Source: Candidatus Latescibacterota bacterium (lineage in GTDB: Bacteria > Latescibacterota > UBA2968 > GCA-2709665). Taken from it: a stretch of 64,000 nucleotides of DNA. The notes beneath the pieces were generated by a model. The model had not been told where the DNA came from. It was given only the letters and a program-made list of their open reading frames with translations, and did no database searches. The stretch lies in the NCBI GenBank assembly GCA_965219455.1, contig OZ244744.1:3776001-3840000 (forward strand), written 5' to 3'. Of the stretch, positions 225 through 58,689 are shown in pieces. A program made the translations under genes and the position numbers. Position 1 is the stretch's first letter. Every line of letters starts with the position of its first letter.

Positions 225-3200
225 ATGCTTCCCAAACGGACTCTGTTGTTGATCACCGCGATCGTCGTCGTCGCCTTTGCAGGGCAGGCATTTGCCGGCG
301 CCAATGCAAATGCCGTTTTGTCGCTTGACCTGATTCCCGGTGCGGGCGCCGGCAACCGGACGGATGATGGGATAACGTCGGGGACGGTTTCTGGCCGGGG
401 CACAACCATCGCTGTTGAGGTTTTCGCGACAGGCGTGAGGACGTCTCTGGCCGGGATGATCATCAAATTTGACTTTGACCCTTCGTTACTGTCGTATGAA
501 AAGGCCGAAAACAGCGCGTTCGCCCTCACGCTTCCGGAAGGTTCCGTTGGCACCCATCTGGCGGCGCAGAGTCCCGTGGCATTGGCGTCTTCGGGGTTTC
601 TGGCGCGCGCGGAGTTTTCAACCGTTGCCGACGTTACGGGCCGGCAGTTTTCCATGGGCATCGAGTCGGTTACACTCGCCGAGAGTCCGACCTCGAGCGA
701 CGTACTCAGAACAAACAGTGAGATCACGTTCAATTCCGCGCCCTCCCCCGATTTCGACGGTGATGATTTTGTTGGATTCTCTGACTTTCTTGTTTTCGCG
801 AGCGCGTTCGGGTCGCGGCAAGGGGACGGGAGGTACAATGCCGCACAAGACCTGAATACCGATGGTTCCGTTGACTTTACCGACTTTCTGATTTTCGCGC
901 AGAGCTTTGGAGGTCCGCCGCCGTCAACGGGCGGCGGTGGCGGCGGTGGCGGCGGCAACCCGGATCTCGTTGTTCAGTCGCCTTCGGTAAGCAGCACACG
1001 CGTGGCTGCGGGTGGTCCCTTTGCACTGAGCGCGACGGTACGCAACCTGGGCAGTGCCGCGTCCGCCGCCACAACGTTACGCTACTACCGCTCGACGGAC
1101 GCGACGATTACCACGAGTGACACTCAGGTTGGTACGGATGCGGTGCGAGGGCTTGCGGCTGCCGCCGGAAGCGCCATGTCGTTTAGTTTGATCGCTCCGA
1201 CGGATTCCGGCACCCACTACTACGGGGCTTGCGTCGACGCAGTGGCAGGGGAAGCCAATTCCGGAAACAACTGTTCGGCTTCCGTCGCCGTAACCGTAAC
1301 GACGCAGCCTCCGCCGCCGGCGGGAGCGTCGAAGCTCTACTGGACGGACTGGGGCACGGACAAGATTCAACGCGCCAACCTGGACGGCTCCGGGGTCGAA
1401 GACCTGGTCTCGGGCGGCGGGCTGGACGGGCCTGACGGATTGGCGCTGGATATGGCGGGCGGCAAGTTGTACTGGACGGACGCGGGCGCCAACAAGATCC
1501 AGCGAGCCGATCTCAATGGCTCAAACGTCGAAGACCTGGTCACCGGCCTGGGAATCCCGTACGGCCTGGCCCTGGACGTATCCGGCGGCAAGATGTACTG
1601 GACGAGCCGGCAGACGAACAAGATCCAGCGTGCCGATCTCGGCGGCGCCAATGTTGAAGACCTCGTCACCAGCGGCCTGATGTTCCCGGGCGGACTGGCG
1701 CTGGACGTATCGGCCGGCAAGATGTACTGGACGAACCCGGGCGTGAACAAGATTCAGCGGTCCAACCTGGATGGCTCGAGTGTCGAAGATCTCGTGACCA
1801 GCGGCGTCAGCAGTCCCACCGGCCTTGCGCTGGACGTGTCCGGCGGCAAGATGTACTGGACGGACCGGCGCTCGGACAAGATCCAGCGGTCCAACCTGAA
1901 CGGTTCCGGAGTCGAAGACCTGGTCACCAGCGGCCTGCACAGCCCGAACGGACTGGCTCTGGACGTATCTGCCGCCAAGATGTACTGGGCCGACGCGGGT
2001 ACGAACAAGGTGCAGCGCGCCAACCTGGACGGCTCAAACGTGGAAGACCTGGTTACGGGAGCCAACGGCCTGGTCGATCCGTCGGGGGTGGCGGTGGGGG
2101 CGTCGGCAACAGGTGGAGGCGGTTCCGGCAGCGGCGGAGGTGGAAACGGCGGCGGCGCCTCCGCGGACCTGACTGTAGAAACGCCCTCGGTTAACAACAA
2201 CAGACCTGCCGCCGGGTCGTCGTTTACGCTGAGTGCGACGGTCCGCAACACGGGCAATGGCTCGTCCGCGGCATCGACGTTACGATACTACCGCTCTTCG
2301 AACGCGACGATTTCCTGGCGTGACACGGAGGTCGGCACCGACGCCGTTGGCAGACTTGCGGCTTCCGGCGCCAGCGCCGAGTCGATTGACCTGACGGCGC
2401 CATCGGGTACCGGGACCTACTACTACGGGGCCTGTGTGGACGCGGTGTCGGGTGAATCCGATACCGGAAACAACTGCTCCGCTGCGGTTACAGTAACGGT
2501 TGGCGCGGCCCCTGCCGCTGACCTGGTCGTCGTATCCCCTTCGGTTGACAACAACAGTCCTGCCGCCGGGTCGTCGTTTACTTTGAGTGCGACGGTCCGC
2601 AACAGGGGCAATGGCTCGTCCGCGGCATCGACGTTACGATACTACCGCTCTTCGAACGCGACGATATCTGCGAGTGACACTGAAGTCGGAACGGACGCGG
2701 TGAGCGGACTTGCGGCTTCCGGCGCCAGCGCCGAGTCGATCGGGCTGACGGCGCCATCGGGTGCCGGGACCTACTACTACGGGGCCTGTGTGGACGCAGT
2801 GTCGGGTGAATCCGATACCGGAAACAACTGCTCCGCTGCGGTTACGGTAACCGTTGGCGCGGCCCCTGCCGCTGACCTGGTCGTCGTATCCCCTTCGGTT
2901 GACAACAACAGTCCTGCCGCCGGGGCGTCGTTTACTTTGAGTGCGACGGTCCGCAACCAGGGCAATGGCTCGTCCGCGGCATCGACGTTACGATACTACC
3001 GCTCTTCGAACGCGACGATATCTGCGGGTGACACTGAAGTCGGAACGGACGCGGTGAGCGGACTTGCGGCTTCCGGCACCAGCGCCGAGTCGATCGGGCT
3101 GACGGCGCCATCGGGTACCGGGACCTACTACTACGGCGCCTGTGTGGACGCGGTCTCGGGTGAATCCGATACCGGAAACAACTGCTCCGCTGCGGTTACG

Positions 3201-4967
3201 GTAACCGTTGGCGCGGCCCCTGCCGCTGACCTGGTCGTCGTATCCCCTTCGGTTGACAACAACAGTCCTGCCGCCGGGTCGTCGTTTACTTTGAGTGCGA
3301 CGGTCCGCAACGGCGGCAATGGCCCGTCCGCGGCATCGACGTTACGATACTACCGCTCTTCGAACACGACGATATCTGCGGGTGACACTGAAGTGGGAAC
3401 GGACGCCGTTGGCGGGCTTGTGGCTTCCGGCGTCAGCGCCGAGTCGATTGGATTGACGGCTCCATCGGGTGCCGGGACCTACTACTACGGCGCCTGTGTG
3501 GACGCAGTGTCGGGTGAATCCGATACCGGAAACAACTGCTCCGCTGCGGTTACAGTAACCGTTGGCGCGGCCCCTGCCGCTGACCTGGTCGTTGTATCCC
3601 CTTCGGTTGACAACAACAGTCCTGCCGCCGGGGCGTCGTTTACGCTGAGTGCGACGGTCCGCAACCAGGGCAATGGCTCGTCCGCGGCATCGACGTTGCG
3701 CTATTACCGCTCTTCGGACGCGACGATATCTGCGGGTGACACCGCAGTCGGAACGGACGCCGTTGGCGGACTTGCGGCTTCCGGCGCCAGCGCCGAGTCG
3801 ATTGACCTGACGGCTCCATCGAATCCCGGAACCTACTATTACGGGGCCTGTGTGGATGCGGTGTCGGGCGAGTCGGACACAAGAAACAACTGCTCCTCCG
3901 CTGTGAGCGTCACAGTCGCGTCCCAGCCGCCGCCGCCCACGGTAGCCTCAAAGCTTTACTGGACGGACTGGGGTACCGACAAGATCCAGCGCGGCGATCT
4001 GGATGGCTCGAACGTCGAAGACCTGGTGAGCAGCGCGGGACTCGATGGACCCGACGGGTTGGCCCTGGATATGGCGGGCGGCAAGATGTACTGGACGGAC
4101 GCGGGTACGGCAAAGATCCAGCGGTCGGATCTGGACGGCTCCAACGTTGAAGACCTGGTTACCAGCGGACTGAGCGTACCGTACGGACTGGCCCTTGACG
4201 TGTCAGGCGACAAGATGTACTGGACAGATCGGCAGAACGGAAAGATCCAGCGCGCCGATCTGGATGGTTCCAATGTTGAAGACCTCCTCACCCTGGCCGG
4301 CCTGGCATTTCCAGGTGAAATCGCGCTGGACGTGTCCGGAGGCAAGATGTACTGGACGAACCCGGGGTCGGACAAGATCCAGCGCGCGGATCTGGACGGC
4401 TCCAACATTGAAGACCTGGTTACCACAGGTCTGAGCAGCCCCACGGGTCTGGCTCTGGACGTGGCAAATGACAAGATGTATTGGACGGACCGCGGTACAC
4501 ACAAGATTCAGCGCGCCGGTCTCGACGGTTCCAGCGTCGAAGACCTGGTCACCAGCGGCCTTACAACCCCCAACGGGTTGGACCTGGACGTGTCCGGTGG
4601 CAAGATGTACTGGACGGACGTCGACGCAAACAAGGTCCAGCGCGCGGATCTCAATGGATCCAACGTCGAAGACCTCCTCACCAGCGCCGACGGACTGGTC
4701 GATCCTTCGGGTCTCGCTGTAGGCGCCGTCAGCAACAGCAGCGGGGGAACCTATGGCGTTGGTGACGCACTCCCGAATTTCCCAACCGGCTTCTTTGTTC
4801 CACGGCTTCTTCGGAATGCAAACCTTACAATAAGCGGCGGGCGCGCGGTACTCAGCTTTCAGAATGGCGGCCTGATCGAGCTTCAGGATGGAACCCGTTA
4901 TACCTGTGTCGCCGCCGCCGGATGCAGCATCGAGGGCGGACGCGTCACCAGGGGCGCCTTTGAATAG
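225..4967 (+). CDS. Secreted scaffoldin-like protein: cohesin-like + dockerin-like (class B) + CARDB + YWTD propeller + 5x CARDB + YWTD propeller + small C-terminal domain
   Basis: ORF 132..4967; the likely start is ATG225, after AGGAG at 211-215, with signal peptide MLPKRTLLLITAIVVVAFAGQAFA. Shows cohesin-like pattern IAVEVFA-GV-xLxG-xKFxFDPSLL...GFLARAEF, EF-hand pair DFDGDDFVGFSDF...DLNTDGSVDFTDF, CARDB motif DLVVxSPSV...ATVRNxG...YYGACVD, and two sets of six YWTD repeats. Confidence 0.85.
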   Translation: MLPKRTLLLITAIVVVAFAGQAFAGANANAVLSLDLIPGAGAGNRTDDGITSGTVSGRGTTIAVEVFATGVRTSLAGMIIKFDFDPSLLSYEKAENSAFALTLPEGSVGTHLAAQSPVALASSGFLARAEFSTVADVTGRQFSMGIESVTLAESPTSSDVLRTNSEITFNSAPSPDFDGDDFVGFSDFLVFASAFGSRQGDGRYNAAQDLNTDGSVDFTDFLIFAQSFGGPPPSTGGGGGGGGGNPDLVVQSPSVSSTRVAAGGPFALSATVRNLGSAASAATTLRYYRSTDATITTSDTQVGTDAVRGLAAAAGSAMSFSLIAPTDSGTHYYGACVDAVAGEANSGNNCSASVAVTVTTQPPPPAGASKLYWTDWGTDKIQRANLDGSGVEDLVSGGGLDGPDGLALDMAGGKLYWTDAGANKIQRADLNGSNVEDLVTGLGIPYGLALDVSGGKMYWTSRQTNKIQRADLGGANVEDLVTSGLMFPGGLALDVSAGKMYWTNPGVNKIQRSNLDGSSVEDLVTSGVSSPTGLALDVSGGKMYWTDRRSDKIQRSNLNGSGVEDLVTSGLHSPNGLALDVSAAKMYWADAGTNKVQRANLDGSNVEDLVTGANGLVDPSGVAVGASATGGGGSGSGGGGNGGGASADLTVETPSVNNNRPAAGSSFTLSATVRNTGNGSSAASTLRYYRSSNATISWRDTEVGTDAVGRLAASGASAESIDLTAPSGTGTYYYGACVDAVSGESDTGNNCSAAVTVTVGAAPAADLVVVSPSVDNNSPAAGSSFTLSATVRNRGNGSSAASTLRYYRSSNATISASDTEVGTDAVSGLAASGASAESIGLTAPSGAGTYYYGACVDAVSGESDTGNNCSAAVTVTVGAAPAADLVVVSPSVDNNSPAAGASFTLSATVRNQGNGSSAASTLRYYRSSNATISAGDTEVGTDAVSGLAASGTSAESIGLTAPSGTGTYYYGACVDAVSGESDTGNNCSAAVTVTVGAAPAADLVVVSPSVDNNSPAAGSSFTLSATVRNGGNGPSAASTLRYYRSSNTTISAGDTEVGTDAVGGLVASGVSAESIGLTAPSGAGTYYYGACVDAVSGESDTGNNCSAAVTVTVGAAPAADLVVVSPSVDNNSPAAGASFTLSATVRNQGNGSSAASTLRYYRSSDATISAGDTAVGTDAVGGLAASGASAESIDLTAPSNPGTYYYGACVDAVSGESDTRNNCSSAVSVTVASQPPPPTVASKLYWTDWGTDKIQRGDLDGSNVEDLVSSAGLDGPDGLALDMAGGKMYWTDAGTAKIQRSDLDGSNVEDLVTSGLSVPYGLALDVSGDKMYWTDRQNGKIQRADLDGSNVEDLLTLAGLAFPGEIALDVSGGKMYWTNPGSDKIQRADLDGSNIEDLVTTGLSSPTGLALDVANDKMYWTDRGTHKIQRAGLDGSSVEDLVTSGLTTPNGLDLDVSGGKMYWTDVDANKVQRADLNGSNVEDLLTSADGLVDPSGLAVGAVSNSSGGTYGVGDALPNFPTGFFVPRLLRNANLTISGGRAVLSFQNGGLIELQDGTRYTCVAAAGCSIEGGRVTRGAFE
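2164..3920 (+). repeat. Five tandem 354-bp (118-aa) CARDB repeats
   Basis: Near-identical units; the period is confirmed by shadow ORFs at 2423/2777/3131/3485. Confidence 0.9.
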
Positions 4968-4980: not shown

Positions 4981-7900
4981 ATGAAATGGCCAATTACGAA
5001 TCGGCAATTCGTCTTGATGTCACTGGTTGTCGTCTTGATGGCATTTGCCATGCCGGGTTTGGGTTACGCCCAGGGAAACAGCCCGTCGGTGACGGCTTCG
5101 ACAGCGTCGCCGTTAACGGAAGGGTCGCTGGATGGCAGCGTGGTAACGCTGACGCTATCGGGCGGCGCCTACGCGAGTTCCATCTTCGACGTTCGGCGAG
5201 GTGTGTCGGTATCGGGCATTCCGGGCGTGAGCGTGGGTACGTTCGGGATAACCCGCGTTAACGATACGAAATTGACGATAGAACTGGACTTCAACGGTGA
5301 CTTCGACGAAGACGAGACGTTGACGTTCACGGTGGGCGCGGGGGCCATAGCGAACTACAGCGGCGCGGCCCTGACCGCGGAGTTGTCGGTCAGCGCGGCT
5401 ATAGAATCGGTGACTGCGTCAACAACCTCCCCGTTGACCGAGGCAACGCTTGACGGGAGCGTGGTGACGTTGACGCTGGCCGGACGCGCTTACGCGAGTT
5501 CCATCTTCGACGTTCGTGACGGGGTGTCGGTATCGGGCATTGCGGGCGTGAGCGTGGGTACGTTCGGCGTAACGCGCTTGAGCGACACCAAGGTGACGGT
5601 TGAACTCGACTTCAACGGAGATATCGACAGTGACGGAACGTTGACGTTTACCGTCGGCGCCGACGCGATCGCGGACTACAACGGCGCAGCCCTGACCGCG
5701 GAGTTGTCGGTCAGCGCGGGTATGGAATCGGTGACGGCGTCGACGACGTCGCCGTTGACGGAGTCGACGCTGCATGGCAGCGTGGTGACGCTGACGCTTT
5801 CTGGCGGCAGGTACGCGAGTTCCATCTTCGACGTCCGGGATGGGGTGTCGGTATCGGGCATTGCGGGCGTGAGCGTGGGTACGTTCGGCGTGCAGCGCGT
5901 GAGCGATACGAAGGTGACGGTTGAGCTCGACTTCAACGGCGATATCGACTCGAACGGTACGCTGACGTTCACGGTAGGCGCCGACGCGATCGCGAACTAC
6001 AGCGGCCCCGCGCTCACGGACCAACTGCCTGTCACGGCGAGCATGGAATCGGTGACGGCGACGACGGCGTCACCGTTGACGGAAGGGACGCTGAACGGGA
6101 GCGTGGTGACGTTGACGCTTTCTGGCGGCAGGTACGCAAGTTCCATCTTCGACGTCCGTGACGGGGTGTCGGTATCGGGCGTTGCGGGCGTGAGCGTGGG
6201 TACGTTCGGCGTAACGCGCTTGAGCGATACGAAGGTGAGGGTTGAACTGACGTTCAACGGCGATATCGACTCGAACGGCACGCTGACGTTCACGGTAGGC
6301 GCCGACGCGATCGCGAACTACAGCGGCCCCGCGCTCACGGACCAACTGCCTGTCACGGCGAGCATGGAATCGGTGACGGCGACGACGGTGTCACCGTTGA
6401 CGGAAGGGACGCTGAACGGGAGCGTGGTGACGTTGACGCTGTCGGGCGCCAGATACGCGAGTTCCATCTTCGACGTCCGTGACGGGGTGTCGGTATCGGG
6501 CGTTGCGGGCGTGAGCGTGGGTACGTTCGGCGTAACGCGCTTGAGCGATACGAAGGTGAGGGTTGAACTGACGTTCAACGGCGATATCGACTCGAACGGC
6601 ACGCTGACGTTCACGGTAGGCGCCGACGCGCTCGCGAACTACAGCGGCCCCGCGCTCACGGACCAACTGCCTGTCACGGCGAGCATGGAATCGGTGACGG
6701 CGACGACGGTGTCACCGTTGACGGAAGGGACGCTGAATGGGAGCGTGGTGACGTTGACGCTTTCTGGCGGCAGGTACGCGAGTTCCATCTTCGACGTCCG
6801 TGACGGGGTGTCGGTATCGGGCGTTGCGGGCGTGAGCGTGGGCACGTTCGGCGTGCGGCGCGTGAGCGATACGAAGGTGACGGTTGAACTGACGTTCAAC
6901 GGCGATATCGACTCGAACGGCACGCTGACGTTCACGGTAGGCGCCGACGCGCTCGCGAACTACAGCGGCCCCGCGCTCACGGACCAACTGCCTGTCACGG
7001 CGAGCATGGAATCGGTGACGGCGACGACGGTGTCACCGTTGACGGAAGGGACGCTGGACGGGAGCGTGGTGACGTTGACGCTGTCGGGCGCCAGATACGC
7101 GAGTTCCATCTTCGACGTCCGTGACGGGGTGTCGGTATCGGGCGTTGCGGGCGTGAGCGTGGGCACGTTCGGCGTGCAGCGCGTGAGCGATACGAAGGTG
7201 ACGGTTGAGCTCGACTTCAACGGCGATATCGACTCGAACGGTACGCTGACGTTTACGGTAGGCGCCGACGCGCTCGCGAACTACAGCGGCCCCGCGCTCA
7301 CGGACCAACTGCCTGTCACGGCGAGCATGGAATCGGTGACGGCGACGACGACGTCGCCGTTGACGGAAGGGACGCTGGACGGGAGCGTGGTGACGTTAAC
7401 GCTGTCGGGCGCCAAATACGCGAGGTCTACGTTCGACGTCCGTGACGGGGTGTCGGTATCGGGCGTTGCGGGCGTGAGCGTGGGCACGTTCGGCGTGCAG
7501 CGCGTGAGCGATACGAAGGTGACGGTTGAACTGACGTTCAACGGCGATATCGACTCGAACGGCACGCTGACGTTCACGGTAGGCGCCGACGCGCTCGCGA
7601 ACTACAGCGGCCCCGCGCTCACGGACCAGGTGTCTGTAACTGCGCTGGAGGAAACGGTTGTTGCGACAACGCCGCAGTCGTTGACGGAGGCAACGTTGAA
7701 CGGGAGCGTGGTGACGTTGACGCTTTCCGGTCGTTCGTACGCGAGTTCCATCTTCGACGTTCGGAGAGCCGTGACCGTCTCAGGAATCATGGGCGTAAGC
7801 GTGGGGACATTCGGGATCCAGCGCGCCAGCGACACAAAAGTGACGGTAACGCTCACGTACAACGGTGACATCGACGCGGACGGCACGTTGACGTTCACCG

Positions 7901-10900
7901 TGGGCGCTGGTGCGATCTCGAATTACAGCGGCGCCGCGCTGACGGCGCAGTTGCCGGTGAGCGCGGGGATGGAGTCGGTGACGGCGACGACGGTGTCACC
8001 GTTGACGGAAGCGACGTTGAACGGGAGCGTGGTGACGCTGACGTTGACTGGCGGTGCGTACGAGAGTTCCATTCACGTCGTGCGGCGCGGCGTGTCGGTA
8101 TCGGGTATAACGGGCGTGAGCGTTGGCACGTTCGGCATTCAACGCGTGAGCGACACGAAGGTAACGGTCGAGCTCACGTTCAACGGCGATATCGACGCGG
8201 ACGGTACGCTGACGTTCACCGTGGGCGCGGGGGCAATCGCGAGCTACAGCGGCGCCGCGCTGACGGCGCAGTTGCCGGTGAGCGCGGGGATGGAGTCGGT
8301 GACGGCGACGACGGTGTCACCGTTGACGGAAGCGACGTTGAACGGGAGCGTGGTGACATTGACGCTTTCTGGCGGTGCGTACGAGAGTTCCATTCACGTC
8401 GTGCGGCGAGGCGTGTCGGTATCGGGGATTACGGACGTGAGCGTGGAGTGGAACGGCGTGGACCGTATAAGCGATACGAAGGTAACGGTCGAACTGTCGT
8501 TTAGCGGCGATATCGACGCGGACGGTTCGCTGACGTTCACCGTGGGCGCGGGGGCAATCGCAAATTACAGCGGCCCCTCGTTGACCGACCACGTGTCTGT
8601 AACAGCGCTTGAGGAAACCGTTATTGCCACAGTGCCACAGTTATTGACGGAAGCGACGTTGAACGGGAGCGTGGTGACATTGACGCTTTCTGGATGCGCA
8701 TACGTGTCTTCCACTCACGACGTGCGTGACGGGGTGTCGGTATCGGGGATTGCGGGCGTGAGCGTTGGCGAGCAGAACGTGGACCGTATAAGCGATACGA
8801 AGGTAACGGTCGAGCTGTCGTTTAGCGGCAACATCGACAACGACGGCAGGTTGACGTTCACGGTGGGCGCCGGGGCGATCGCGAACTACAGCGGCGAACC
8901 ACTCGTTGCGTCATTGCCCGTGACCGCCGAGGCCGGCGGCGGAACCAATCAGGTACCCACGTTCAGTGCCGGCTCACACGCCACGCGCAGCTTCGCCGAA
9001 AACACGGGCGCTGGACAGAACATAGGCAGCCCGGTGGGTGCGACGGATAGCGACGGCGGAACACTGACCTACAGCCTTGAGGGCACGAACGCGGCGAGTT
9101 TCACGCTCGTTTCAACCAGCGGTCAGCTACAGACGAAAGCGGGCGTCACCTACGACTACGAGGTGAAGAACCGCTATGAGGTTACGGTGCGGGTGTCCGA
9201 CGGCCAGGGTGGCAGTACCACGATAGACGTGACCGTCAACCTGACCGACGTGAGCGAACCGCAGCCGAATCCGGAGCTCTATTGGACGGACTTGTCCGAA
9301 GACAGGATCCAGCGCGCCGATCTGGACGGCTCGAACGTCGAAGACCTGATCACCAGCGGTTTGGACGGCCCCGTCGGTCTGGCGCTGGACGTTGCCGCCG
9401 GCAAGATGTACTGGACGGAATGGGAAAGAAACAAGATTCGGCGCGCCAACCTGGACGGGTCCGGCGCCGAAGACCTCATCACCAGCGGGCGCGCCCCCGT
9501 CTGGCTGGCGCTGGACGTGCCCGGCGGCAAGATATACTGGACGGACTGGGGTAGGGACAGGATCCGGCGTGCGGACCTGGACGGTTCGAACGTCGAAGAC
9601 CTGGTTACGACGGGTCTGAACAGTCCGGCAGGCCTGGTTCTGGACGTGCCCGGCGGGAAAATGTACTGGACGGACTCGTCCGAGGACAAGATCCAGCGCG
9701 CCAACCTGGACGGTTCGAACGTTGAAGACCTGATTACCAGCGGTCTTGGCAGTCCCAGTGGGCTGGCGCTGGACGTGGCGAGCGGCAAGATGTACTGGAC
9801 GGATCGCGAAAGGGGCGAGATCCGGCGTGCGGACCTGAGTGGCGCCAATATCGAAGACGTTATCACACGTGGTCTGAACAAGCCCTACGAGGTGGACCTG
9901 GATCTGGCCGCGGGCAAGATGTACTGGACCGACCTCGACACCGACAAGATCCAGCGCGCCAACCTGGACGGCTCGAACGTCGAAGACCTCGTCACCCGCG
10001 CCGACGGACTGGAAGATCCATCCGGCCTGGCCCTGGCGGTTGCCGCCGCCCCCACGCCGCCGGCGCCGCAGGGACCGTGCGCAACCGGGAGCGCGGTGCC
10101 GAACCCGGCTGCCAACCCGTGGCTGGTATCCGACTGCAATGCCCTGCTCGATGCCCGGGATACCCTGGCAGGCACGGCGACGCTGAACTGGTCGGAAAAC
10201 ACACTTATATCCACCTGGGACGGCGTTACGCTCAGCGGGACGCCGCAACGCGTAACGAATTTGAGACTTTGGAACGAGAGCTTGAATGGAACGATACCGG
10301 CTGAGTTGAGCCGCCTGACCGGCCTGAAAGCGCTATACCTCGCGTTCAACCAGTTGACAGGGACCATACCGGCGGAGTTGGGCACGATGACCGGCCTGAC
10401 GCACCTGGGCCTGATGAATAACCGGTTGACCGGGCAAATCCCAGCAGAACTGCGAAACCTGACCGACCTGCGGCAGTTTGCCCTTCAGAACAACCAGTTG
10501 ACCGGTACGATCCCCGCGTGGTTGGGTAGCCTGCCCCAATTGCGCATACTGAACCTGCAGGGCAACCGGATGACCGGGCCGATTCCGGCGGAACTCGGTC
10601 GCCTGTCCGAATTGTGGCAGTTGCTCATCTTCGGTAATCAGTTGACCGGTACGATCCCGGCGGAACTTGGTAACCTGAATCTGCTGCAGGAAGTGCGCCT
10701 AGACGATAACCAGCTGACGGGGTCCATACCCTCATCGTTCAGCAGTCTGACAAAGTTGACATTATTGTACCTCGCCGGCAACACCCTGACAGGGTGCATC
10801 CCGGTGGTCCTGCGGGACGTCTCCAGCAACGACCTGGACAAGCTTAATTTGCCAGACTGTACCGGGTCGCAAGGACAGGTCACAGCCGACTTCAACGGCG

Positions 10901-11962: not shown

Positions 11963-12024
11963 AACGTACAAACCCTGTATCGAAGCGTCGGTTGTGAAAC
12001 CGCCCAAACAATGGAGGTCACAGG

Positions 12025-12636
12025 ATGATCCTTAAGGGGAATTGTCTCTTTTCACGACTTACCATAATTGTACTCATTTTGACAGGCTGCGCCAGGGGTG
12101 GTCTGCCCGCGCACGTCCTGAAACTGACGCCGGAATCACTGCAAAACCGGGCTTTACAGACAAGAAAATACGACGGGATTTCGGAAGCCGATCTTCTTTC
12201 GGCGTCGACTGGCGTGATTCAGGACCTGGGATTCATCATCGATGAGAGCGAGACAAATCTCGGACTTATCGTTGGCTCAAAAAACAGAGATGCGGATCCT
12301 GACGCAGCGCAGCGTGCAGGACAGGTACTTATCGGGGCGACTACATTCCTGCTTGGTGTGATCGCTGCGGTTGCCTCACGGGACGAAGATGTGTTTGATG
12401 ATATTTTCTATGTTCCCGCTGTTGACGACTATCAGAAGCTGTGGGCTTCCATTGTTATCCGCCCGACGTCGGAAGATAAGGACAAGATACACGTTGTCAG
12501 GGTGACGTTTCAGCGGATTGTCTGGAATACGGACGACGAAATCGCCCGGCTCCAAAGCCTGGATAATCCCGAGATGTATCAGAAGTTCTTCAATCTTCTT
12601 TCAAAATCAGTTCTGTTGGAAGGGCAGGAAATATGA
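12025..12636 (+). CDS. Uncharacterised lipoprotein, QTRxxD/QDLG family, paralogue 1
   Basis: GGAGG RBS; lipobox LTGC; RALQTRKYD...VIQDLGFIIDE...LGLIVG...YQKFFNLLSKSVLLE. Confidence 0.8.
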   Translation: MILKGNCLFSRLTIIVLILTGCARGGLPAHVLKLTPESLQNRALQTRKYDGISEADLLSASTGVIQDLGFIIDESETNLGLIVGSKNRDADPDAAQRAGQVLIGATTFLLGVIAAVASRDEDVFDDIFYVPAVDDYQKLWASIVIRPTSEDKDKIHVVRVTFQRIVWNTDDEIARLQSLDNPEMYQKFFNLLSKSVLLEGQEI

Positions 12637-13082
12637 AAGTATCCTGGAAAATGGCGTTCGCGATTGGCGCATTATTCGCGTATTCCGCGTGCACGTCATC
12701 AAAAGAGCATCTTTTGAAGATGGATGAAAGCCAGGTCAAGCTGAGAAGCATGCAGACCCGTTCATTCGACACCACGGATAAGGAAAGCATGCTCAGAACT
12801 GTAATATCCACGCTTCAGGACCTGGGCTATATCGTGAATGAAGCGAATGAAGTGCTCGGAACGGTTAGCGCACGAACAACTGACATAAAGTATGAGTTGT
12901 TCGAAAAGAAAAAACTCCCTCTTCTGATAACCGTTACGGTTCGTCCAAGGGGCGAAACTCAATTATTGGTACGGGCGAACGCGGAGTTCAATCAGAAAGC
13001 TGTAAAAAACCCATTGGTATATCAGAATTTCTTCAACGTTTTGGAAAAATCGATCTTCCTGACCGCTCACGAGGTTGACTGA
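12633..13082 (+). CDS. Uncharacterised lipoprotein, QTRxxD/QDLG family, paralogue 2
   Basis: ATGA overlap with the previous gene; lipobox-like YSAC; RSMQTRSFDTTD...TLQDLG...YQNFFNVLEKSIFLTAHEVD. Confidence 0.8.
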   Translation: MKVSWKMAFAIGALFAYSACTSSKEHLLKMDESQVKLRSMQTRSFDTTDKESMLRTVISTLQDLGYIVNEANEVLGTVSARTTDIKYELFEKKKLPLLITVTVRPRGETQLLVRANAEFNQKAVKNPLVYQNFFNVLEKSIFLTAHEVD

Positions 13083-13149
13083 GTGGTCGCTATGTCCGCA
13101 TGGTCCACGCCGTACTGATTCAAACGGAATTTATCCGGGAAACGAAAAT

Positions 13150-13575: not shown

Positions 13576-13632
13576 ACGAACGTGATCGTCCAGCCATAAC
13601 GACACTGTACGAAATGCCGCGGGTATAGAATT

Positions 13633-39715: not shown

Positions 39716-39728
39716 AACGGACTTATTT

Positions 39729-46335: not shown

Positions 46336-46483
46336 CGATCTGTCGAGTTTGGAATCAAGGGTGTCCATTGAGACCCATTGAGCCCAGGTATGTAATTTGT
46401 CGGAAAGGCGAAAATGCCACGCTACCCCAGTCACCGTCGACAGAGAGGGTGCCGTGACCGCTTCAAAATTGCCTGATAATACT

Positions 46484-49400: not shown

Positions 49401-51088
49401 TCCTGGCTTCGGCCGGGGACTGGGATGATCGCACGGTCCGGCTGTGGGACGTGGCCACACAAGCACAGGTCGCCACGCTGAGAGGGCATACCAGGGAGGT
49501 CTATTCGGTAGCGTTTTCTCCGGCCGACGGCGCCACCCTGGCTTCGGGGTCGTGGGACCACACGGTCCGGCTGTGGGACGTGGCCACACACGAGGAGCTG
49601 GCCACGTTTGAAGAGCATATGGGTCCGGTCACTTCGGTGACGTTCTCGCGCGATGGGGGCACCCTCGTCTCGGGCGCCGCGGACGGCACGGTGCTGCTGC
49701 GGGACGTGGAGACGGGCAATGCCGACGGTCTGTCCGGTCACGGGTCTTTGACCACGATGGCGTTGTCGCCCGATGGCACGCTCCTGGCTTCCGGGTCTCA
49801 GGATGGCACGGTCCGGCTGTGGGACGCGGCCACAAGAGCACGAAATACCACTCTTGAAGGACATAGGACCAGGGTCGGTTCCGTGTCGTTTTCTTTTGAC
49901 GGCGCCGTCCTGGCCTCCGGGTCATTGAATCAAACGGTCAAGCTGTGGGACGTTGGGAAACGAGAACTGATCGCCAGCCTGGAGGGGCACACGGGTCCGG
50001 TCACTTCGGTTTCGTTTTCGCCCGATGGCGCCCTGCTAGCTTCGGCAGGGGGGTGGAATGATGCCACGGTCTGGCTGTGGGACGTGGGGACTCGCGAGCC
50101 GATCGGCACCCTCGAAGGGCATACGAATGATGTCCGCTCGGTGGCGTTTTCTCCCGACGGCGCTCTCCTGGCCTCGGCAGGGGGCTATGAAGACAAGACG
50201 GTCAAGCTCTGGAACGTCGCCACGCGAGAACTCATCGCTTCGCTGGAAGATCACACGGGTTCAGTGAATTCGGTGGTGTTTTCGCCCGATGGGAAGACCC
50301 TCGCTTCCGGGTCGTCAGATGGAACGGTGCGGCTGTCGGACGCAGCGACAAGAACCCCCATCTCCTCTCTGGACAATCGGAGTTCCGTGTATTCGTTGGC
50401 ATTCTCGTCTGACGGCGCCGTCCTGGCCTCCGGGTCATGGGATCGAACGGTCAAGCTGTGGGACGTGGAGACACGAGAACAGATAGGCGCCCTGCAAGGA
50501 GGGCACACGGGTTCGGTCCATTCAGTGGCGTTTTTTCGTGATGGCGCCACCCTGGTCTCCGGGGCATCGGACGGCACGATGCTGCTGTGGGATTTGCAGC
50601 GTCTGGAATCCCGACCCCATTCCCTGAGGCCGGTCTCCGGCCTGGAGCATCAAGGGCCGGCCGGCGGCGATTTAGCCGACCCCTTTGTCGTCTTGGTGCT
50701 GGATCAGAACGGGGAACCTGTCGCGGGTGCACAGGTCACGTTTGCCGTCACCGCTGGCGGGGGAACGCTGTCCGTAGAGACTGCCACCACGGATGAGAAC
50801 GGCCGCGCTGCCACGACCCTGACGCTTGGAAGCCAACCCGGTACGAACACCGTCGTCGCATCGGTAAAGGACCTCGAGCCGGTGACCTTCACCGCCACCG
50901 CCAGGGCCGCATCCGACTTCGATGGCGACGGGACCGTCGGTTTCGCCGACTTCGTGCGGTTTGCGGCGCAGTTTGGGTTGAGTCAGGGTGACGAGGGTTA
51001 CGACGCGCGTTACGATCTTGACGAAAACGGCGCCATCGGGTTCAGCGATTTTCTGATCTTTGCCCAAGCCTTTGGAAGAGAAGGGTGA
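46484..51088 (+). CDS. Secreted metzincin + WD40 + Big_1 + double WD40 + Big_1 + dockerin-like (class B)
   Basis: ATG46484 gives a signal peptide ending VHA; HEIGHAFGLEH plus TMSY; WD40 blocks; two Big_1 domains; DFDGDGTVGFADF...DLDENGAIGFSDF. Confidence 0.87.
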   Translation: MKTPAPELAMFVLVGLLISPPALVHASSSSPDSVHFCVPFDYEQWRRDHPQPAGKRLAVLNVGEPRTVRMIYFLPNDRPFRQEVVDSMKVVIRRVQTFYAAQMEVHGYGRKTFRLESDTRDEPIVHLVDGSHPESHYYNTFGGAMVDELWQVFDFNVNIYSIIIDTHHASFQGRGGGGGRDGKIGGSAWLTSGYIGAGAHGGYAGTTAHEIGHAFGLEHDFRDGTYTMSYGQGGRLSACAAEFLAVHPYFNPNTSIEEGRPPTIEFISPLGYPAGSESISVQLKVSDPSGIHQVILFVASSLGGAIELRACRGVLAKKDAVVQFEYDGVIPSEIGTSLSNPISHPIIVEAVDTDGNVHQQPFGLAEMSPYLIATLEGHTDRVRSVAFSSDGTLASGSWDGTAKLWNTETRKQITTFPHDARVVSVAFSPEGNILAAVSWSTDLWDVVTERRIATLRGEGQPYSAAFSPDGTLALGLWNGAVELWNVATREQIATLEGHSSWVRSVAFSQDGTLLASGSHDGRLLLWDVGTKYQIATLEGHTGGVGSVAFSRDGSLLVSGSGDRTVRLWDVATRQNTATIEEHTYSVEAVSFSPDGTLVSGDARGVIMLWNAATQERIARFAHRGGVQSVAFAPDGGILASGSGDGTIALWDMSARTRPRPSALEIFSGDGQQGAPGTPLAQPMVVEVRDQYGDPLPDAAVTFTITAGDGKLSGRFTVQHATTDANGRAELNLTLGLPGPNTVGVSLGGRELATFTAEGVGTAVAELEGDYRTWHLPRAATVRLGKGAMGEGDRALALSPDGRCLAVSSGIGVWLYEAATSRALALLPSENPVHSVAFSLDGTLASGLDNGQVALWEVETGERIATLRHADRGRITSVVFSADGTGLASGSWDQVIKLWDVETRREVGTWEVPWEFNALLPISVAFSPDGSTLASGFQDRTVRLWDVETQTEVATLKGHTDRVISVSFSPDGGLLASAGDWDDRTVRLWDVATQAQVATLRGHTREVYSVAFSPADGATLASGSWDHTVRLWDVATHEELATFEEHMGPVTSVTFSRDGGTLVSGAADGTVLLRDVETGNADGLSGHGSLTTMALSPDGTLLASGSQDGTVRLWDAATRARNTTLEGHRTRVGSVSFSFDGAVLASGSLNQTVKLWDVGKRELIASLEGHTGPVTSVSFSPDGALLASAGGWNDATVWLWDVGTREPIGTLEGHTNDVRSVAFSPDGALLASAGGYEDKTVKLWNVATRELIASLEDHTGSVNSVVFSPDGKTLASGSSDGTVRLSDAATRTPISSLDNRSSVYSLAFSSDGAVLASGSWDRTVKLWDVETREQIGALQGGHTGSVHSVAFFRDGATLVSGASDGTMLLWDLQRLESRPHSLRPVSGLEHQGPAGGDLADPFVVLVLDQNGEPVAGAQVTFAVTAGGGTLSVETATTDENGRAATTLTLGSQPGTNTVVASVKDLEPVTFTATARAASDFDGDGTVGFADFVRFAAQFGLSQGDEGYDARYDLDENGAIGFSDFLIFAQAFGREG

Positions 51089-51675: not shown

Positions 51676-52332
51676 GTGATACACCTGCCCAAATACATCA
51701 TTGCCAGCGTCATCGCGCTGACAACCGTAAATTTCCCCGCACCTGTTCCGGGCCAGACCACACTCGCCATCCGGGGCGGCTTGAGCCGTGCGACGATGAG
51801 CGGAATCGAGGACCTGGGCGAATCTGCATTGAAAGCGCGCACCGGCCTTTCACTGGGTGCGTCCGCGACCATCCCTATTCAGGACAACTTCAGCCTTCGA
51901 CTCGATGGCGGCTACGTCCAGAAGGGCTACAGTGCCGAAGCCACCGGGTTAGAAGCAAACCTCTATCTCGATTACATCGAGCTCTCGGGCCTGGGAGCTG
52001 TCAAACTTACACCCTCCGGAAGTCCGGCTTCGGTATATGCGTTCGCAGGACCGTCGTTGGCGTTTAATACGAAGTGTGAAGGGTCTGCCACCGTAAGCCT
52101 TGGCGGTGAAAGTACCTCGGGCTCAGAGTCCTGCGGCGACGACGTCCGGGGTATCGATCTGGGAATTACGGGAGGGATTGGCGCGGTGATGGCGGTTTCC
52201 GAAAAGATGAGCCTTTCTGTAGATCTACGCTACACACTGGGTCTGCTCTCGGTTGACAAGACCGGCGACGACGACATCAAGAACCGGGACCTTATTCTTC
52301 AGGTCGGCGTCGGCTTTCCCATCGGAGAATAG
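51676..52332 (+). CDS. Porin-family / PorT-like outer-membrane beta-barrel protein
   Basis: Signal peptide; RGGLS...RTGLSLG...YVQKG...LDYIEL...AGPSLAF...DLRYTLGL...NR..ILQVGVGF. Confidence 0.8.
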   Translation: MIHLPKYIIASVIALTTVNFPAPVPGQTTLAIRGGLSRATMSGIEDLGESALKARTGLSLGASATIPIQDNFSLRLDGGYVQKGYSAEATGLEANLYLDYIELSGLGAVKLTPSGSPASVYAFAGPSLAFNTKCEGSATVSLGGESTSGSESCGDDVRGIDLGITGGIGAVMAVSEKMSLSVDLRYTLGLLSVDKTGDDDIKNRDLILQVGVGFPIGE

Positions 52333-52447
52333 ACAGTAACCTTTTATAGTTGGCAATATCCACGTAACCATCGTGCGACCGGATCGTCTGGTCGCACGAT
52401 CTGTTTTCGCGCCTGCATCTGTCGCTGATCGCCGGTATGCCAGGCGA

Positions 52448-53737
52448 TCAGCCGCCCAGGAGTCGCCCGAGCGTGTCGATAACTTTCTGCCCGCCGGTGT
52501 AGCCGAAGAAAAGAAGGGTGGCGACGAGGATGGCGTTGACGACAGGGCTGCTCTTGAAGCCGGGTCCCACCCAGTCCAACCTGTTATTCATCATCAGAAG
52601 CGTGAGCGCTACCAGGGGCAGGAAGAACGAACCCAGGACGGCATAGGTGAGTTGGACCTCCGCCACCGAACCCCACAACAGGACGAGGGGCACTGTAGCG
52701 AGACCGACCAGGTAGGCGCGGTAGGCCGTGGATCGCGTGATGTCCGATTTCTGAAAGGCTTCAGGAGAGACCCCTTTACGCAGGGCGAGGAAATTCGCGA
52801 ACATGTAGGGATCGCTCTGCCAGACGCCGAGCAGGCTGGAGAAGACCGCGCCCCAGAAGCCCAGCAGGAAGGCCCACTTGCCCGGCGCCCCCAGCGCCTG
52901 TTCGAGTTGGCTTGACAGGATGAGGGCCAGCGATGCACCCTTCCCGTCCAGCGCGACGCGCGATCCGATGATAACCATGGCGACGCCGAACAGCGCGGTG
53001 ACGGTGTACCCCACGGCCAGATCAATGCGACAGGCTTTCACGCCCTCCCGCCCTTGCCTGCCCGTTTCCCGTATCCAGTAACCGTAAGAAAGCAGCGTGA
53101 CCGTCCCGCCGACGCCTCCCATCACGCCGAGGGTCCATCCCACGCCGCCGGGCGGGATGGCGGGAAAGAACAGGCCTTTGGCCAGGGCGTTCCAATCCGG
53201 ACCCAACAACAGGGCCGTGAGCAACACGGTAACGAACATCAATCCGATGCACGCCGACATGAGAACTTCAAAAACGCGAAAGCCGCCCATCCATACCAGG
53301 GCCAGACCGGCCAGGGCATGGACAACGCCCCACACGATCTTGGACGTCGCCGGATCGCCGATGGGAAGCAGACCGGTGCCCGCTACGCCGCAGGCCGTTA
53401 CCAGCGCGCCGCCCACGGAGAAGCTCCAGATGATAAGGTAGACAATGAAGACCCACTGCACCCAGGCGCCGAGCCGGTGCACCCAACCTTCCAGCATCGT
53501 GGTCCCGGTGGCCATCTGCCAACGGGCGATACCCTCGTTCAGGGTCCATTTGAGCAGCGCGCCGACCACGGCCGCCCAGACGATGCCAACGCCTATTTTC
53601 GAGCCGGCCAGGCTGGCCGTGAGCAGGTCTCCCGCGCCCACGCCGGTGGCGGCCATGAGAATGCCGGGAAGAATGAGAGCGGGTCTGAAACGCACACGGA
53701 ATCCGGGTTCGGGGTTCGAGGACGCAACACGCGGCAC
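52448..53737 (-). CDS. NRAMP-family divalent metal transporter (non-canonical)
   Basis: Many hydrophobic helices; PGILMAATGVGAGDL, KWTLNEGIARWQMATG, GGVGG, GAVFSSLLG. Confidence 0.85.
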   Translation of the reverse strand: MPRVASSNPEPGFRVRFRPALILPGILMAATGVGAGDLLTASLAGSKIGVGIVWAAVVGALLKWTLNEGIARWQMATGTTMLEGWVHRLGAWVQWVFIVYLIIWSFSVGGALVTACGVAGTGLLPIGDPATSKIVWGVVHALAGLALVWMGGFRVFEVLMSACIGLMFVTVLLTALLLGPDWNALAKGLFFPAIPPGGVGWTLGVMGGVGGTVTLLSYGYWIRETGRQGREGVKACRIDLAVGYTVTALFGVAMVIIGSRVALDGKGASLALILSSQLEQALGAPGKWAFLLGFWGAVFSSLLGVWQSDPYMFANFLALRKGVSPEAFQKSDITRSTAYRAYLVGLATVPLVLLWGSVAEVQLTYAVLGSFFLPLVALTLLMMNNRLDWVGPGFKSSPVVNAILVATLLFFGYTGGQKVIDTLGRLLGG

Positions 53738-53813
53738 TGGACTGCGGCCACCTAAATAAGCAGGTGCCGGGAACCCGTCAAGCGAAAAACGCCGGCTCCC
53801 ACTGAATTGGCGC

Positions 53814-53842
53814 TTGACAGGGCGCCAACGGATTTCTATAAT
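53814..53842 (+). promoter_or_regulatory. Consensus sigma70 promoter for the TPR-eno operon
   Basis: TTGACA (53814-53819), 17-bp spacer, TATAAT (53837-53842). Confidence 0.85.
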
Positions 53843-53929
53843 TCAGCCACTGCTATTGTTCTGTCCCGGAAATAGATCGCCGAATGGTAACATAATTCCG
53901 GGGGCGGAACGCTGGGAGACATTGTGGCG

Positions 53930-57040
<3,111 letters not shown>

Positions 57041-57096: not shown

Positions 57097-58689
57097 TCAC
57101 GGCGTCTTTCCGAAATTCCGCGCGAACACAATGAAGTCCCCGAAAGAGACGATCCGGTCGGCATCAAGGTCGAAGGAGGGGTCGAAGCCGGGTTGGCCCG
57201 CAGATTTGCCAAAGCCCGCGGCAAATGCGATGAAATCCGGAAAATCGACCGTACCGCTGGCGTCGAAGTCCGCGGCTCCCGGAGTTCGTCCTTCGCGCGC
57301 GGTGAGAGAGAGGGTGTAGGTCTGAGGGCCGGCGGACGTGCGTGTGACGGCCAATACTTTTGGCGTGCCGCCGTAGAGACCGATGCGGCGGCGGGCGGTG
57401 TGAGGGACGGGTACGGCGGCGACGTCGAGTGTGCCGTCCCGTTCGGACACCAGTGTCACCAGCAGGTCGCTGTCGCTTCTGACATCGAGCGAGAGGCCCG
57501 CGAAACCCGACGTTCGAGGCACGAAATAGTCGATGCCCCAGAGCTGGAGGGCGCCGCCGAGGTCGTCGGCCGGAACCGCTACGGTATCTCTTCTGACCGG
57601 TCTGAGGGTGAGACCCCGGTATCCGGGTTCGCCCTCGTCGTTCACGAACACGGCCGCCGCCCAGTTGGCCCAGAATTGCTCGAAGCGCTCGCCCGCGTCG
57701 AGCGATTCCAGGGCAAGGTTGAACCCTTCAATACTGTTTGCCGGTTCGGCGACCAGTCGGGTGACGGCCGAATTGCCGTAGCGCTGGGCGAAGTAGGTCA
57801 TCAGCAGAAAGGTCTGGTCGAAGAGGAAAGGCAGGTAGCCGCCTTTGGACCAGCTGTCGGCATCCGTCAGGCCGGTATTGGGTGGTACAGAGACGGCGGA
57901 GTCCGACGATTTGAGCAGGTTGGGAACACGGAGGAAGTTCCGCGCGGCCGCGCCGGTCGTGTCCTTGTAACCGCAGGCCAGTTCGGCGTATTCTGAACAG
58001 CCCTCGTCCACCCATCTGTGTTCGTCGGGATCGGCGTTCCAGTGCAGCATGTGCTGGAACTCGTGGGCAAGGGTGGCCCGCGCCAGGTCGCTGTCGAGGT
58101 CCAGGGGATTGCTGTCGATGTAGAGGATTTCCCTGCCGACCGGCGCCGCCTGGTTCGCGGTATCGTAATACCCCACGAACGTGCCGCCCAGACTGCTGTC
58201 CATAATATCCAGTATAACGATCAGGACCCGTGGATCGCCGTCCGCGTCGGGCGGGGGGCCGAAGATCTCGGTATCGATGGAGAAAATGCCGCGTTCGCGA
58301 TACCGGGGGGTGGACCGGTCGAAGGCCAGGGCGAGGGTTGCGACAGCGGCGGGATTCACGCGGGGTCCGTTCCAGATATCGTCCTCCACGAAGATATAGC
58401 AGTGTTCGCCCTTAAAACGGCACGTGGTTGTGGTCAGATAGAACGGATCGGAACCCGCAACCGCGCCGAAATTATACGCACGAACGGTCAGGGGGTCGCC
58501 GACGTCAAACGTCTCGGCGGCCGTTTTTTTTGCCGCGGCGCCGGGATGTGGACGCACGGACAGGTAGGGAGTACCGCAGCGGGCGTCCGGGTCGGCGAAC
58601 ACGGCGGAATTGAGCAGCAGGCAGAACACCATCCCTGCTGAGGCAGGAAGCCAGGCGCAAGCCGCCGGATTAGAGACGGTCGAAGTCAA
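57097..58689 (-). CDS. Secreted M30 (hyicolysin)-like zinc peptidase + dockerin-like (class B)
   Basis: Signal peptide; CGTP; FGPPPDADGDPRVLIVILDI...GYY...TLAHEFQHMLH...WVDEGCSEYA; DFDASGTVDFPDF...DLDADRIVSFGDF. Confidence 0.82.
   Translation of the reverse strand: MTSTVSNPAACAWLPASAGMVFCLLLNSAVFADPDARCGTPYLSVRPHPGAAAKKTAAETFDVGDPLTVRAYNFGAVAGSDPFYLTTTTCRFKGEHCYIFVEDDIWNGPRVNPAAVATLALAFDRSTPRYRERGIFSIDTEIFGPPPDADGDPRVLIVILDIMDSSLGGTFVGYYDTANQAAPVGREILYIDSNPLDLDSDLARATLAHEFQHMLHWNADPDEHRWVDEGCSEYAELACGYKDTTGAAARNFLRVPNLLKSSDSAVSVPPNTGLTDADSWSKGGYLPFLFDQTFLLMTYFAQRYGNSAVTRLVAEPANSIEGFNLALESLDAGERFEQFWANWAAAVFVNDEGEPGYRGLTLRPVRRDTVAVPADDLGGALQLWGIDYFVPRTSGFAGLSLDVRSDSDLLVTLVSERDGTLDVAAVPVPHTARRRIGLYGGTPKVLAVTRTSAGPQTYTLSLTAREGRTPGAADFDASGTVDFPDFIAFAAGFGKSAGQPGFDPSFDLDADRIVSFGDFIVFARNFGKTP

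Follow-up and report, generated by a model that had tools for sequence, protein, structure and literature searches.

The stretch analysed here (the window, 64 kb, contig positions 3776001-3840000) lies in the closed 5.84-Mb single-contig genome G000 of a Gram-negative Latescibacterota bacterium and contains a cluster of genes encoding secreted proteins with dockerin modules, two of which carry cohesin domains as well. Of the thirteen genes with a dockerin module, twelve are co-directional (positions 225 to 51088), and the remaining one is at 57097-58689 on the minus strand. The modules were located with a regular expression and a hidden Markov model (HMM) built from its hits. Exactly 13 modules were found, at the same coordinates as the 13 twin Ca-loop modules listed in an earlier, model-made reading of the same DNA (the original prediction). 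The occurrence of a 48-54-residue module 13 times within 64 kb cannot be a chance event. As had been stated there, eleven of the modules are C-terminal, stopping 1-6 residues short of the stop codon, and two are internal, with 1351 and 670 residues downstream of them in the proteins encoded from 225 and 29280, respectively. These two are also the only ones with a beta domain of approximately 145 amino acids, in one and two copies, as described before. A hydrophobic, signal-peptide-like N-terminus (judged by eye, no predictor) is found in 13 of 13 proteins, in line with the claim that all are secreted.

The two proteins with an internal dockerin have a similar layout. ORF1 (open reading frame 1, 225-4967; genes are on the plus strand unless stated otherwise) encodes a signal peptide, a cohesin (297-740, amino acids 56-203 of the frame starting at 132; assigned with AlphaFold2 (AF2), Foldseek and VIA), a long-linker dockerin (750-911; assigned by Pfam Dockerin_1 and superposition on 2ozn_B), a Gly-rich linker, six CARDB domains and YWTD beta-propellers. 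The gene product of 29280-32432 contains a signal peptide, two cohesins (29364-29810 and 29811-30245), a long dockerin (30258-30419), CARDB and YWTD domains and an M8-like HExxH motif. Seven genes encode proteins with a C-terminal acidic short dockerin. These are a cadherin/YWTD/LRR protein with signal peptide (4981-11043, dockerin at 10888-11031), a metzincin-like HExxH, WD40 and LRR protein with a lipoprotein-like signal peptide (14232-18353, dockerin at 18204-18347), a Glug and cadherin-like protein with signal peptide (18462-23633, dockerin at 23484-23627), an fn3 protein (23658-25037, dockerin at 24888-25031), a WD40 and fn3 protein (26641-28968, dockerin at 28819-28962), a second metzincin-like, WD40 and LRR protein (32510-37039, dockerin at 36890-37033) and a Big_1 protein (39729-41336, dockerin at 41187-41330). 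The long dockerin is found at the C-terminus of a WD40 protein (37484-39715, dockerin at 39542-39703), a metzincin-like, LRR and Big_1 protein (43690-46335, dockerin at 46153-46314), a metzincin-like protein with approximately 17 or more WD40 repeats (46484-51088, the start being the first Met of the frame opening at 46397; dockerin at 50915-51076) and the HExxH protein without Pfam family encoded on the minus strand at 57097-58689 (dockerin at 57109-57270).

The modules thus fall into two subtypes, seven acidic ones of 48 residues with a short linker (consensus DFNGDGxTDFVDFFLFADAYGGTDxxFDLDGNGxVDFADFFKFVDAFG) and six of 54 residues with a long linker. The duplicated loop-helix pattern is present in 13 of 13 modules: a helix comes after a 12-residue loop in which positions 1, 3 and 5 are Asp or Asn and position 12 is Asp. 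The Ca loops of both halves fit DxNxDGxxxxxD, with position 6 degenerate in two loops (the first of ORF1 and the second of the 57097 gene). Three isolated modules were scanned with Pfam Dockerin_1 (PF00404, gathering cut-off 22.9 bits) and one of them, the long module of ORF1, scored above the cut-off (27.5 bits), the others being the long module of the 37484 gene (21.0 bits) and the acidic short module of the 4981 gene (15.2 bits). The NCBIfam GC-type dockerin model gave approximately 19-22 bits, under its threshold. In a search of all PDB sequences with a profile of the cohesin-dockerin tandem, chain B of 2y3n, a cellulosomal Cel48 dockerin, was the best match (E 7.9e-9), ahead of calmodulins; the match came through the dockerin part only, the window-type cohesin part being unmatched. 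A modelled module could be superposed on the NagH dockerin of Clostridium perfringens (2ozn_B) with Z 7.5 and an rmsd of 1.6 Å over 52 residues at 27% identity. The proposal that the EF-hand pair is a dockerin is borne out by the Pfam score of ORF1 and these two PDB matches. The acidic subtype departs from the other modules at helix positions (DFFLFADAYG and DFFKFVDAFG versus DFLxFAxxFG). Recent gene conversion was considered as a cause of the likeness among the acidic dockerins and rejected, since six of the seven share 88-98% protein but only 78-86% DNA identity, which points to selection on the protein.

The three copies of the beta domain in the window are 65-74% identical to each other, and in both proteins the last copy ends four residues ahead of the dockerin. 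An AF2 model of the cohesin-dockerin tandem, computed on a 45-row alignment, reached a predicted local distance difference test (pLDDT) value of 95.5 and a predicted TM-score (pTM) of 0.81 and contains ten strands over residues 7-145. In a Foldseek search against the PDB, the first 17 matches among those listed are cohesins or cohesin-bearing scaffoldin fragments, with the single cohesins 2vn5_A, 5aoz and 2vo8 aligned at TMt 0.61-0.64. A VIA search, independent of Foldseek and covering 48,161 chains all-against-all, returned cohesins at ranks 1 to 6 (Z 12.2-10.1), among them 2vo8_A (12.2), 2w1n_A (11.9), 5aoz_A (10.4), 4uyp_A (10.3) and 5nrk_A (10.2). The non-cellulosomal cohesins of C. perfringens lead this series and cellulosomal ones are next at Z 10.1-10.4. 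The original prediction of a cohesin-like N-terminal beta domain is therefore upheld at the level of the modelled fold. The family is small, as a search of 1.84 billion representative proteins yielded just 183 relatives of the window-type domain at E ≤ 1e-3. In most of the full-length relatives (150 representatives listed) a dockerin lies approximately 4-8 residues after the cohesin, which marks the tandem as a conserved unit. That the modules are what they seem, dockerins and cohesins, is in our view nearly certain.

The cargo of the 13 proteins, as assigned with Pfam, consists largely of repeat and adhesion-type domains. WD40 repeats were found in five proteins, YWTD (Ldl_recept_b) in three, LRR in four, Glug together with cadherin-like domains in one, fn3 above cut-off in two, Big_1 in two and CARDB in two, so that all cargo types named in the original prediction (WD40, YWTD, LRR, GLUG, cadherin and FN3) were recovered. 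No family of carbohydrate-active enzymes (CAZymes) was detected by Pfam in the 13 proteins, as had been stated before. The number of peptidase domains on the cargo, given before as at least seven, has to be lowered: HExxH motifs are present in eight proteins of the window, but only six of these have a dockerin. The six comprise four paralogous metzincin-like proteins, one M8-like and one unclassified protein, while the M48 and the MA-like ones are free of dockerins. The former is a putative M48/BepA-like metallopeptidase (41348-43351, 92.7 bits) encoded within the island, the latter a PD40 propeller protein with an MA-like HExxH motif (60585-63701, minus strand) encoded beside it. The four metzincin-like domains (HELGHAFGLxHD...MSYG) are 34-46% identical over 308-360 aligned residues, and their Reprolysin_5 or Metallopep scores are near or above the Pfam cut-offs.

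The dockerin proteins are not confined to the window. A genome scan with the HMM of the 13 modules over 65,727 six-frame ORFs returned 114 dockerin ORFs, 102 of which have the module in full length, and together with approximately 29 cohesin modules this answers the call for a genome-wide count. The long form is C-terminal in 45 and N-terminal or internal in 36 of the full-length cases; for the short form the numbers are 14 and 7. The rule that an internal dockerin is preceded by a cohesin holds in the window but fails genome-wide, where an N-terminal or internal position was found for 43 of the 102 full-length dockerins, 24 of which are too near to the signal peptide for a cohesin. Pfam Dockerin_1 gave 53 matches at E ≤ 0.01, 38 of them above cut-off. 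The window-type cohesin is present in seven copies in six ORFs, three in the window and four in a second locus at 686-712 kb. Pfam Cohesin gave 18 further matches at E ≤ 1 (seven above cut-off), none of the window type. Four rounds of iterated HMM searches did not merge the cohesin subfamilies (window type, seven modules; anchor type, nine modules), so that the total of approximately 29 modules in several subfamilies includes added Pfam matches, nine of them with sub-threshold scores. At most two cohesins are found per ORF.

Outside the window, 96 of 101 dockerin ORFs were scanned for cargo (five of less than 120 amino acids were dropped; E ≤ 1e-8 in the first batch and E ≤ 1e-10 in the second). 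WD40 is the most frequent class (31 ORFs), followed by LRR (12), giant fn3/cadherin proteins (6), YWTD/CARDB (5), FGE-sulfatase-like proteins (4), NHL/FG-GAP/ASPIC (3), heparinase II/III-like proteins (3), Peptidase S8 (2), Peptidase M10 (1) and GH5 (1). Five other classes are represented by a single ORF each, and no family was assigned to 23 ORFs. CAZyme-like cargo amounts to 4 of 96, namely the three heparinase II/III-like proteins and the GH5 protein. Plant-cell-wall CAZymes are not the main cargo and the system is not cellulolytic. The four FGE-sulfatase (SUMF1-like) proteins, an unusual cargo, have an N-terminal short dockerin and are encoded at 2894076-2898081 and 4168001-4169338, three of the genes being in tandem.

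Across the phylum, the dockerin profile matched 105 of 121 sampled genomes. Dockerins were found in all 42 sampled relatives of the order to which the window belongs (13/13 in family f1 and 29/29 in family f2), mostly with at least approximately 55 matches each, compared to 1-32 matches per genome in the sister family f3 and 0-29 in other classes. The window-type cohesin is limited to the one order (11/13 in f1, 28/29 in f2) and was found in none of the 78 genomes sampled elsewhere in the phylum. Its distribution is linked to that of the acidic short dockerin. All eight acidic short dockerins of the genome are located in the two loci with a window-type cohesin. In 46 genomes of the order, the acidic type is clearly set apart, with at least 91 bits versus at most 86 bits for all other dockerins. 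Of the ten genus g1 genomes examined in both searches, nine contain the acidic dockerin together with the window-type cohesin; both are missing from the tenth (G072), as they are from G073, which belongs to a different genus of this family. The two modules are encoded approximately 1-20 kb apart in relatives with a single contig. These patterns suggest that acidic short dockerin and window-type cohesin form a cognate pair. That the dockerin and cohesin modules of this genome do pair with each other is, judged from sequence, quite probable.

Proteins suited to hold the cohesins on the cell surface are encoded in the genome. Six proteins of approximately 270 amino acids have no parts other than a signal peptide, a single cohesin and a T9SS (type IX secretion system) type A sorting domain, referred to here as anchors. 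Their TIGR04183 scores (curated cut-off 23 bits) are 34.0-40.6 bits in the genome scan, and 33.2 and 38.1 bits for two scanned as proteins; the Pfam Cohesin scores are between 18 and 31 bits. One anchor gene (3775222-3776028, plus strand, 269 amino acids) is located directly upstream of ORF1 and reaches into the window with its last nine codons (window positions 1-28). Its product matches TIGR04183 with 36.4 and FlgD_ig with 34.6 bits, and the top fold matches of its model are cohesins (TMt 0.55-0.68), many being of the type II anchoring kind. Five of the six anchor genes adjoin a cohesin-dockerin cargo gene. The same neighbourhood of a small anchor gene and a window-type cohesin gene is found in G098, G058 (twice), G080, G051, G097, G112 and G102, and the anchor-adaptor gene pair is conserved. 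The anchor family has 345 members at 90% clustering, named by NCBI, if at all, only 'T9SS type A sorting domain-containing protein'. Three larger proteins of the genome end in a cohesin plus sorting-domain arrangement. Throughout the phylum this cassette is found at the ends of giant proteins, whereas the stand-alone 269-aa anchor was seen only in the order. Two anchor genes in the second cohesin locus (703519-704343 and 709001-709825) have identical 275-aa stop-to-stop frames 5.5 kb apart, which implies that they were duplicated very recently. In a related frame of 248 amino acids (5318384-5319127) the cohesin is present and the sorting domain absent.

The T9SS translocon SprA is encoded in the genome (631 bits, above cut-off), and a gene for a PorU-like sortase carrying its own sorting domain is located approximately 8 kb upstream of the window (3764377-3768597). 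The anchor gene and a gene (3772771-3774960) for an LRR protein whose dockerin is N-terminal lie between the latter and ORF1. In total, 22 T9SS sorting domains were counted in the genome. One of them (25.6 bits for TIGR04183) is at 63727-63966 on the minus strand, at the end of a 1047-aa frame which leaves the window and has no dockerin. None of the 13 dockerin proteins of the window contains a TIGR04183 domain. A secretin was not found in the closed genome either (GspD, TIGR02517, and Pfam Secretin, PF00263, both zero), while the controls match in 6 of 14 genomes. The predicted domain composition of the anchors supports a route to the surface via cohesins with a T9SS sorting domain.

From these observations a model can be derived in which the window is one arm of a genome-wide, hierarchical, surface-anchored cohesin-dockerin assembly, a reading to which we assign a probability of roughly 0.6. 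The bacterium would probably snap a protein coat onto its surface. In the first step, the T9SS would export the small proteins consisting of a cohesin and the C-terminal sorting domain (CTD), and the sortase would fix them to the outer membrane. The cohesin of the anchor would then hold the long dockerin of adaptors (signal peptide, one or two cohesins, dockerin and cargo), such as ORF1 and the product of the 29280 gene. In a third step the N-terminal cohesin of the adaptor would recruit a further protein via the acidic 48-aa dockerin, which is encoded only next to it. In this way, beta-propeller and LRR binding modules and metzincin proteases would snap together, dependent on Ca, into a coat. 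Its role would be adhesion and proteolysis rather than the breakdown of cellulose, and host tissue, prey or particles are possible targets.

Several points weigh against this model. The assignment of partners is drawn from synteny and co-occurrence, which is suggestive, not proof: related genomes are not independent of each other, and if the island may be lost as a block, the same co-occurrence is to be expected. None of the three window copies of the cohesin matched Pfam Cohesin (PF00963) even at E ≤ 10, so that of the HMM and Foldseek checks proposed for this domain only the latter led to cohesins; with its cohesin fold, the window-type domain represents a sequence-divergent cohesin subfamily. 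Ig-like folds of pilins and adhesins follow in the VIA search at Z 9-9.9, approximately 2 Z units under the best cohesins, and this margin is real but modest. The four-residue linker between cohesin and dockerin could indicate a rigid unit, similar to an X-module-dockerin pair, in place of a free receptor. The anchor upstream of ORF1 has a sub-threshold Pfam Cohesin score (18.3 bits) and an AF2 model of moderate pLDDT (73.9, the signal peptide and inter-domain linker being low), and the PorU-like match (213 bits, E 3.7e-63) is under the curated cut-off of 420. Finally, the dockerin proteins have Sec-type leaders and no sorting domain in a genome without secretin, which leaves their route through the outer membrane unexplained.

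The purpose of the assembly, as distinct from its mechanism, might be different from the interaction with a host inferred in the original prediction. A nutrient-acquiring 'proteolysome' or adhesome of a free-living cell, in which metzincins, subtilases and a small number of lyases are kept attached to particles or prey, is a serious if tentative possibility, and the same parts would fit adhesion to, and proteolysis of, particles or prey equally as well as a host role. The proteases among the dockerin proteins (the four metzincin-like, the M8-like, the two S8 and the M10 enzymes) are consistent with it, as are the three heparinase II/III-like lyases, the GH5 and the four FGE-sulfatase-like proteins. 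The expansion of dockerins is an order-wide trait, and a similar complex for the degradation of polypeptides and polysaccharides has been proposed, according to excerpts of the publication, for free-living lake Cloacimonadota (PMC8542988). Most of the cargo, however, has no enzyme domain that could be recognised (of 109 dockerin proteins, 36 are of the WD40 class), and sponge-associated Latescibacterota are reported, in the text seen of PMC8163846, to be rich in such repeat proteins.

The missing secretin and the disproportion between 114 dockerin ORFs and only 22 T9SS sorting domains could also be explained if the dockerin were an export tag. Dockerin proteins would bind to cohesin-CTD carriers in the periplasm and hitch-hike in folded form through the T9SS, with surface display as a side effect or as the step that follows. 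According to excerpts of PMC9251779, proteins that are folded and very large can be exported by the T9SS, which makes such a passage conceivable, and the small single-cohesin carriers are encoded beside cargo genes. The cohesin-dockerin pair would in this case act as a modular secretion adaptor, with six carriers taking approximately 100 folded dockerin-tagged proteins through SprA and then holding them on the surface. Both the export tag and the adaptor derived from it are considered unlikely. No precedent of a T9SS piggyback was found in a literature search of titles and the beginnings of abstracts, and vesicles, lipoprotein export or unrecognised systems are other possible routes. Moreover, six stand-alone carriers for approximately 100 cargoes imply recycling, whereas CTD cargo of the T9SS is normally fixed covalently to the cell surface. 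Still less probable is that the beta domain is no receptor and serves as structural partner of the following dockerin (an X-module-dockerin dyad), which would make the 225 and 29280 proteins cargo with a reinforced dockerin plugging into the anchors: the four-residue linker, the tandem conserved across the family, the pTM of 0.81 for both domains (compatible with a fixed mutual orientation) and the additional alignment of the X-dockerin scaffoldin chains 4wi0_B and 4u3s_B over the dockerin and the preceding end of the beta domain in the profile search would fit, but the 145-aa cohesin-type fold matches cohesins best with no separate X-module among the matches listed, the 29280 gene has a tandem double copy as found in scaffoldins, and it is exactly this domain with which a separate dockerin subtype shares its location and its occurrence.

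The surface-anchored assembly shares several features with the clostridial cellulosomes (SdbA, CipA and type I dockerin enzymes of Acetivibrio thermocellum; 3kcp, 4fl4). In both, a dockerin with duplicated F-hand and a jelly-roll cohesin are found, as well as adaptor proteins with cohesin and dockerin, single-cohesin anchors and several dockerin subtypes suggesting separate specificities. Structures of cellulosomes, 3kcp_A and 4fl4 (CohI9-X-DocII), are the top Foldseek matches for the tandem of the window. Unlike clostridial cellulosomes, the system is encoded in a Gram-negative bacterium, its anchors have T9SS sorting domains instead of SLH domains or sortase signals, and not more than two cohesins are present per protein in place of a many-cohesin scaffoldin. 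Among the Pfam rows listed for the cohesin proteins (best 25 per protein) there is no family of carbohydrate-binding modules (CBMs). The cargo is of the WD40/LRR/YWTD/metzincin type rather than glycoside hydrolases (GHs), with the few CAZyme-like proteins mentioned above, and the cohesin is located four amino acids before the dockerin at the N-terminus of a cargo protein. The best structural match for both modules of the window is the NagH/NagJ system of C. perfringens (2ozn, 2vo8, 2w1n, 2o4e), where cohesin and dockerin are likewise part of the cargo proteins themselves. That system, which belongs to a Gram-positive pathogen, connects a small number of glycoside hydrolases and is directed at host material instead of cellulose. 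In contrast, over 100 proteins, mostly non-enzymatic, are found here together with T9SS anchors and a hierarchy of subtypes.

Cloacimonadota, which belong to the FCB group, provide a parallel for the anchoring. For Candidatus Stygibacter of this phylum, a cohesin scaffoldin with T9SS CTD and dockerin-tagged GH18, GH57, S8 and C25 enzymes were predicted from sequence alone (PMC8542988). Judging from excerpts of that paper, the CTD-bearing cohesin protein likewise serves surface attachment and the enzymes have signal peptides and C-terminal dockerins, but one 3,755-aa scaffoldin with tandem cohesins and CBMs is combined with few dockerin enzymes, whereas the present genome has small anchors with a single cohesin, adaptors with an N-terminal cohesin and dockerin, 114 dockerins and cargo of repeat proteins. 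The cargo itself resembles that of sponge symbionts. WD40, LRR, fn3, cadherin, NHL and FG-GAP/ASPIC repeat proteins with signal peptides are described in the passages seen of work on sponge-associated Poribacteria and Latescibacterota, as are poribacterial WD40 proteins with TIGR04183 domains (PMC3909097, PMC8163846, PMC12993501); these are the same cargo types as found here. The words dockerin and cohesin are absent from the main texts of these three publications. In our literature search no paper combining Latescibacter*, dockerin and cohesin was found, nothing relevant by title or abstract joined dockerin with sponge symbionts, and a 2025 review on cellulosomes had no information about non-cellulosomal cohesins. 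A passage of PMC7081726 credits Farag et al. 2017 with 'cellulosome-affiliated enzymes' in Latescibacteria.

Cohesins and dockerins outside cellulosomes have long been known and were reportedly the subject of Peer et al. 2009. A T9SS-anchored scaffoldin has been predicted before as well (PMC8542988). What is notable here is the size of the system, the near-absence of enzymes, the architecture of small anchors and N-terminal adaptors, and the secretion puzzle. With 114 dockerins and approximately 29 cohesins, it is presumably as large as the biggest cellulosomes. Having almost no carbohydrate enzymes, it would be a general device for the assembly of a protein coat and not a cellulose machine. 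The symbiont-type 'eukaryote-like' WD40, LRR, fn3 and cadherin proteins would gain a testable cell-biological context, namely how they are held on the cell and with which partners. The subtypes predict a specificity code, the anchor cohesin binding the long dockerin and the window-type cohesin the acidic short one, and protein engineering would profit from new orthogonal cohesin-dockerin pairs as parts. The absence of a secretin raises the question how the dockerin proteins leave the cell. If the dockerin did act as a secretion adaptor, a genome without secretin would export and display a huge, exchangeable protein coat with a single tag.

Among the cohesin-dockerin proteins encoded elsewhere in the genome, a secreted one with fn3 and cadherin domains (4784183-4788622) ends in a PPDK_N domain (pyruvate phosphate dikinase, ATP-binding; E 4.2e-24). 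Such an end is unusual in an exported protein and may stem from a stop-to-stop frame that runs through two genes. The genes after the island (51676-57040) are ordinary and encode an outer membrane protein beta-barrel, an Nramp protein (minus strand), a TPR protein, enolase and a CxxCxxCC protein. The enolase is 81-82% identical to that of metagenome-assembled genomes labelled Candidatus Latescibacterota and 90-91% identical to that of two with another or no phylum label. The G+C content is 0.53-0.56 at window positions 12001-16000 and 32001-48000 versus 0.59-0.63 elsewhere in the window, and the stretches of low G+C carry the lipoprotein gene and metzincin-WD40/LRR genes.

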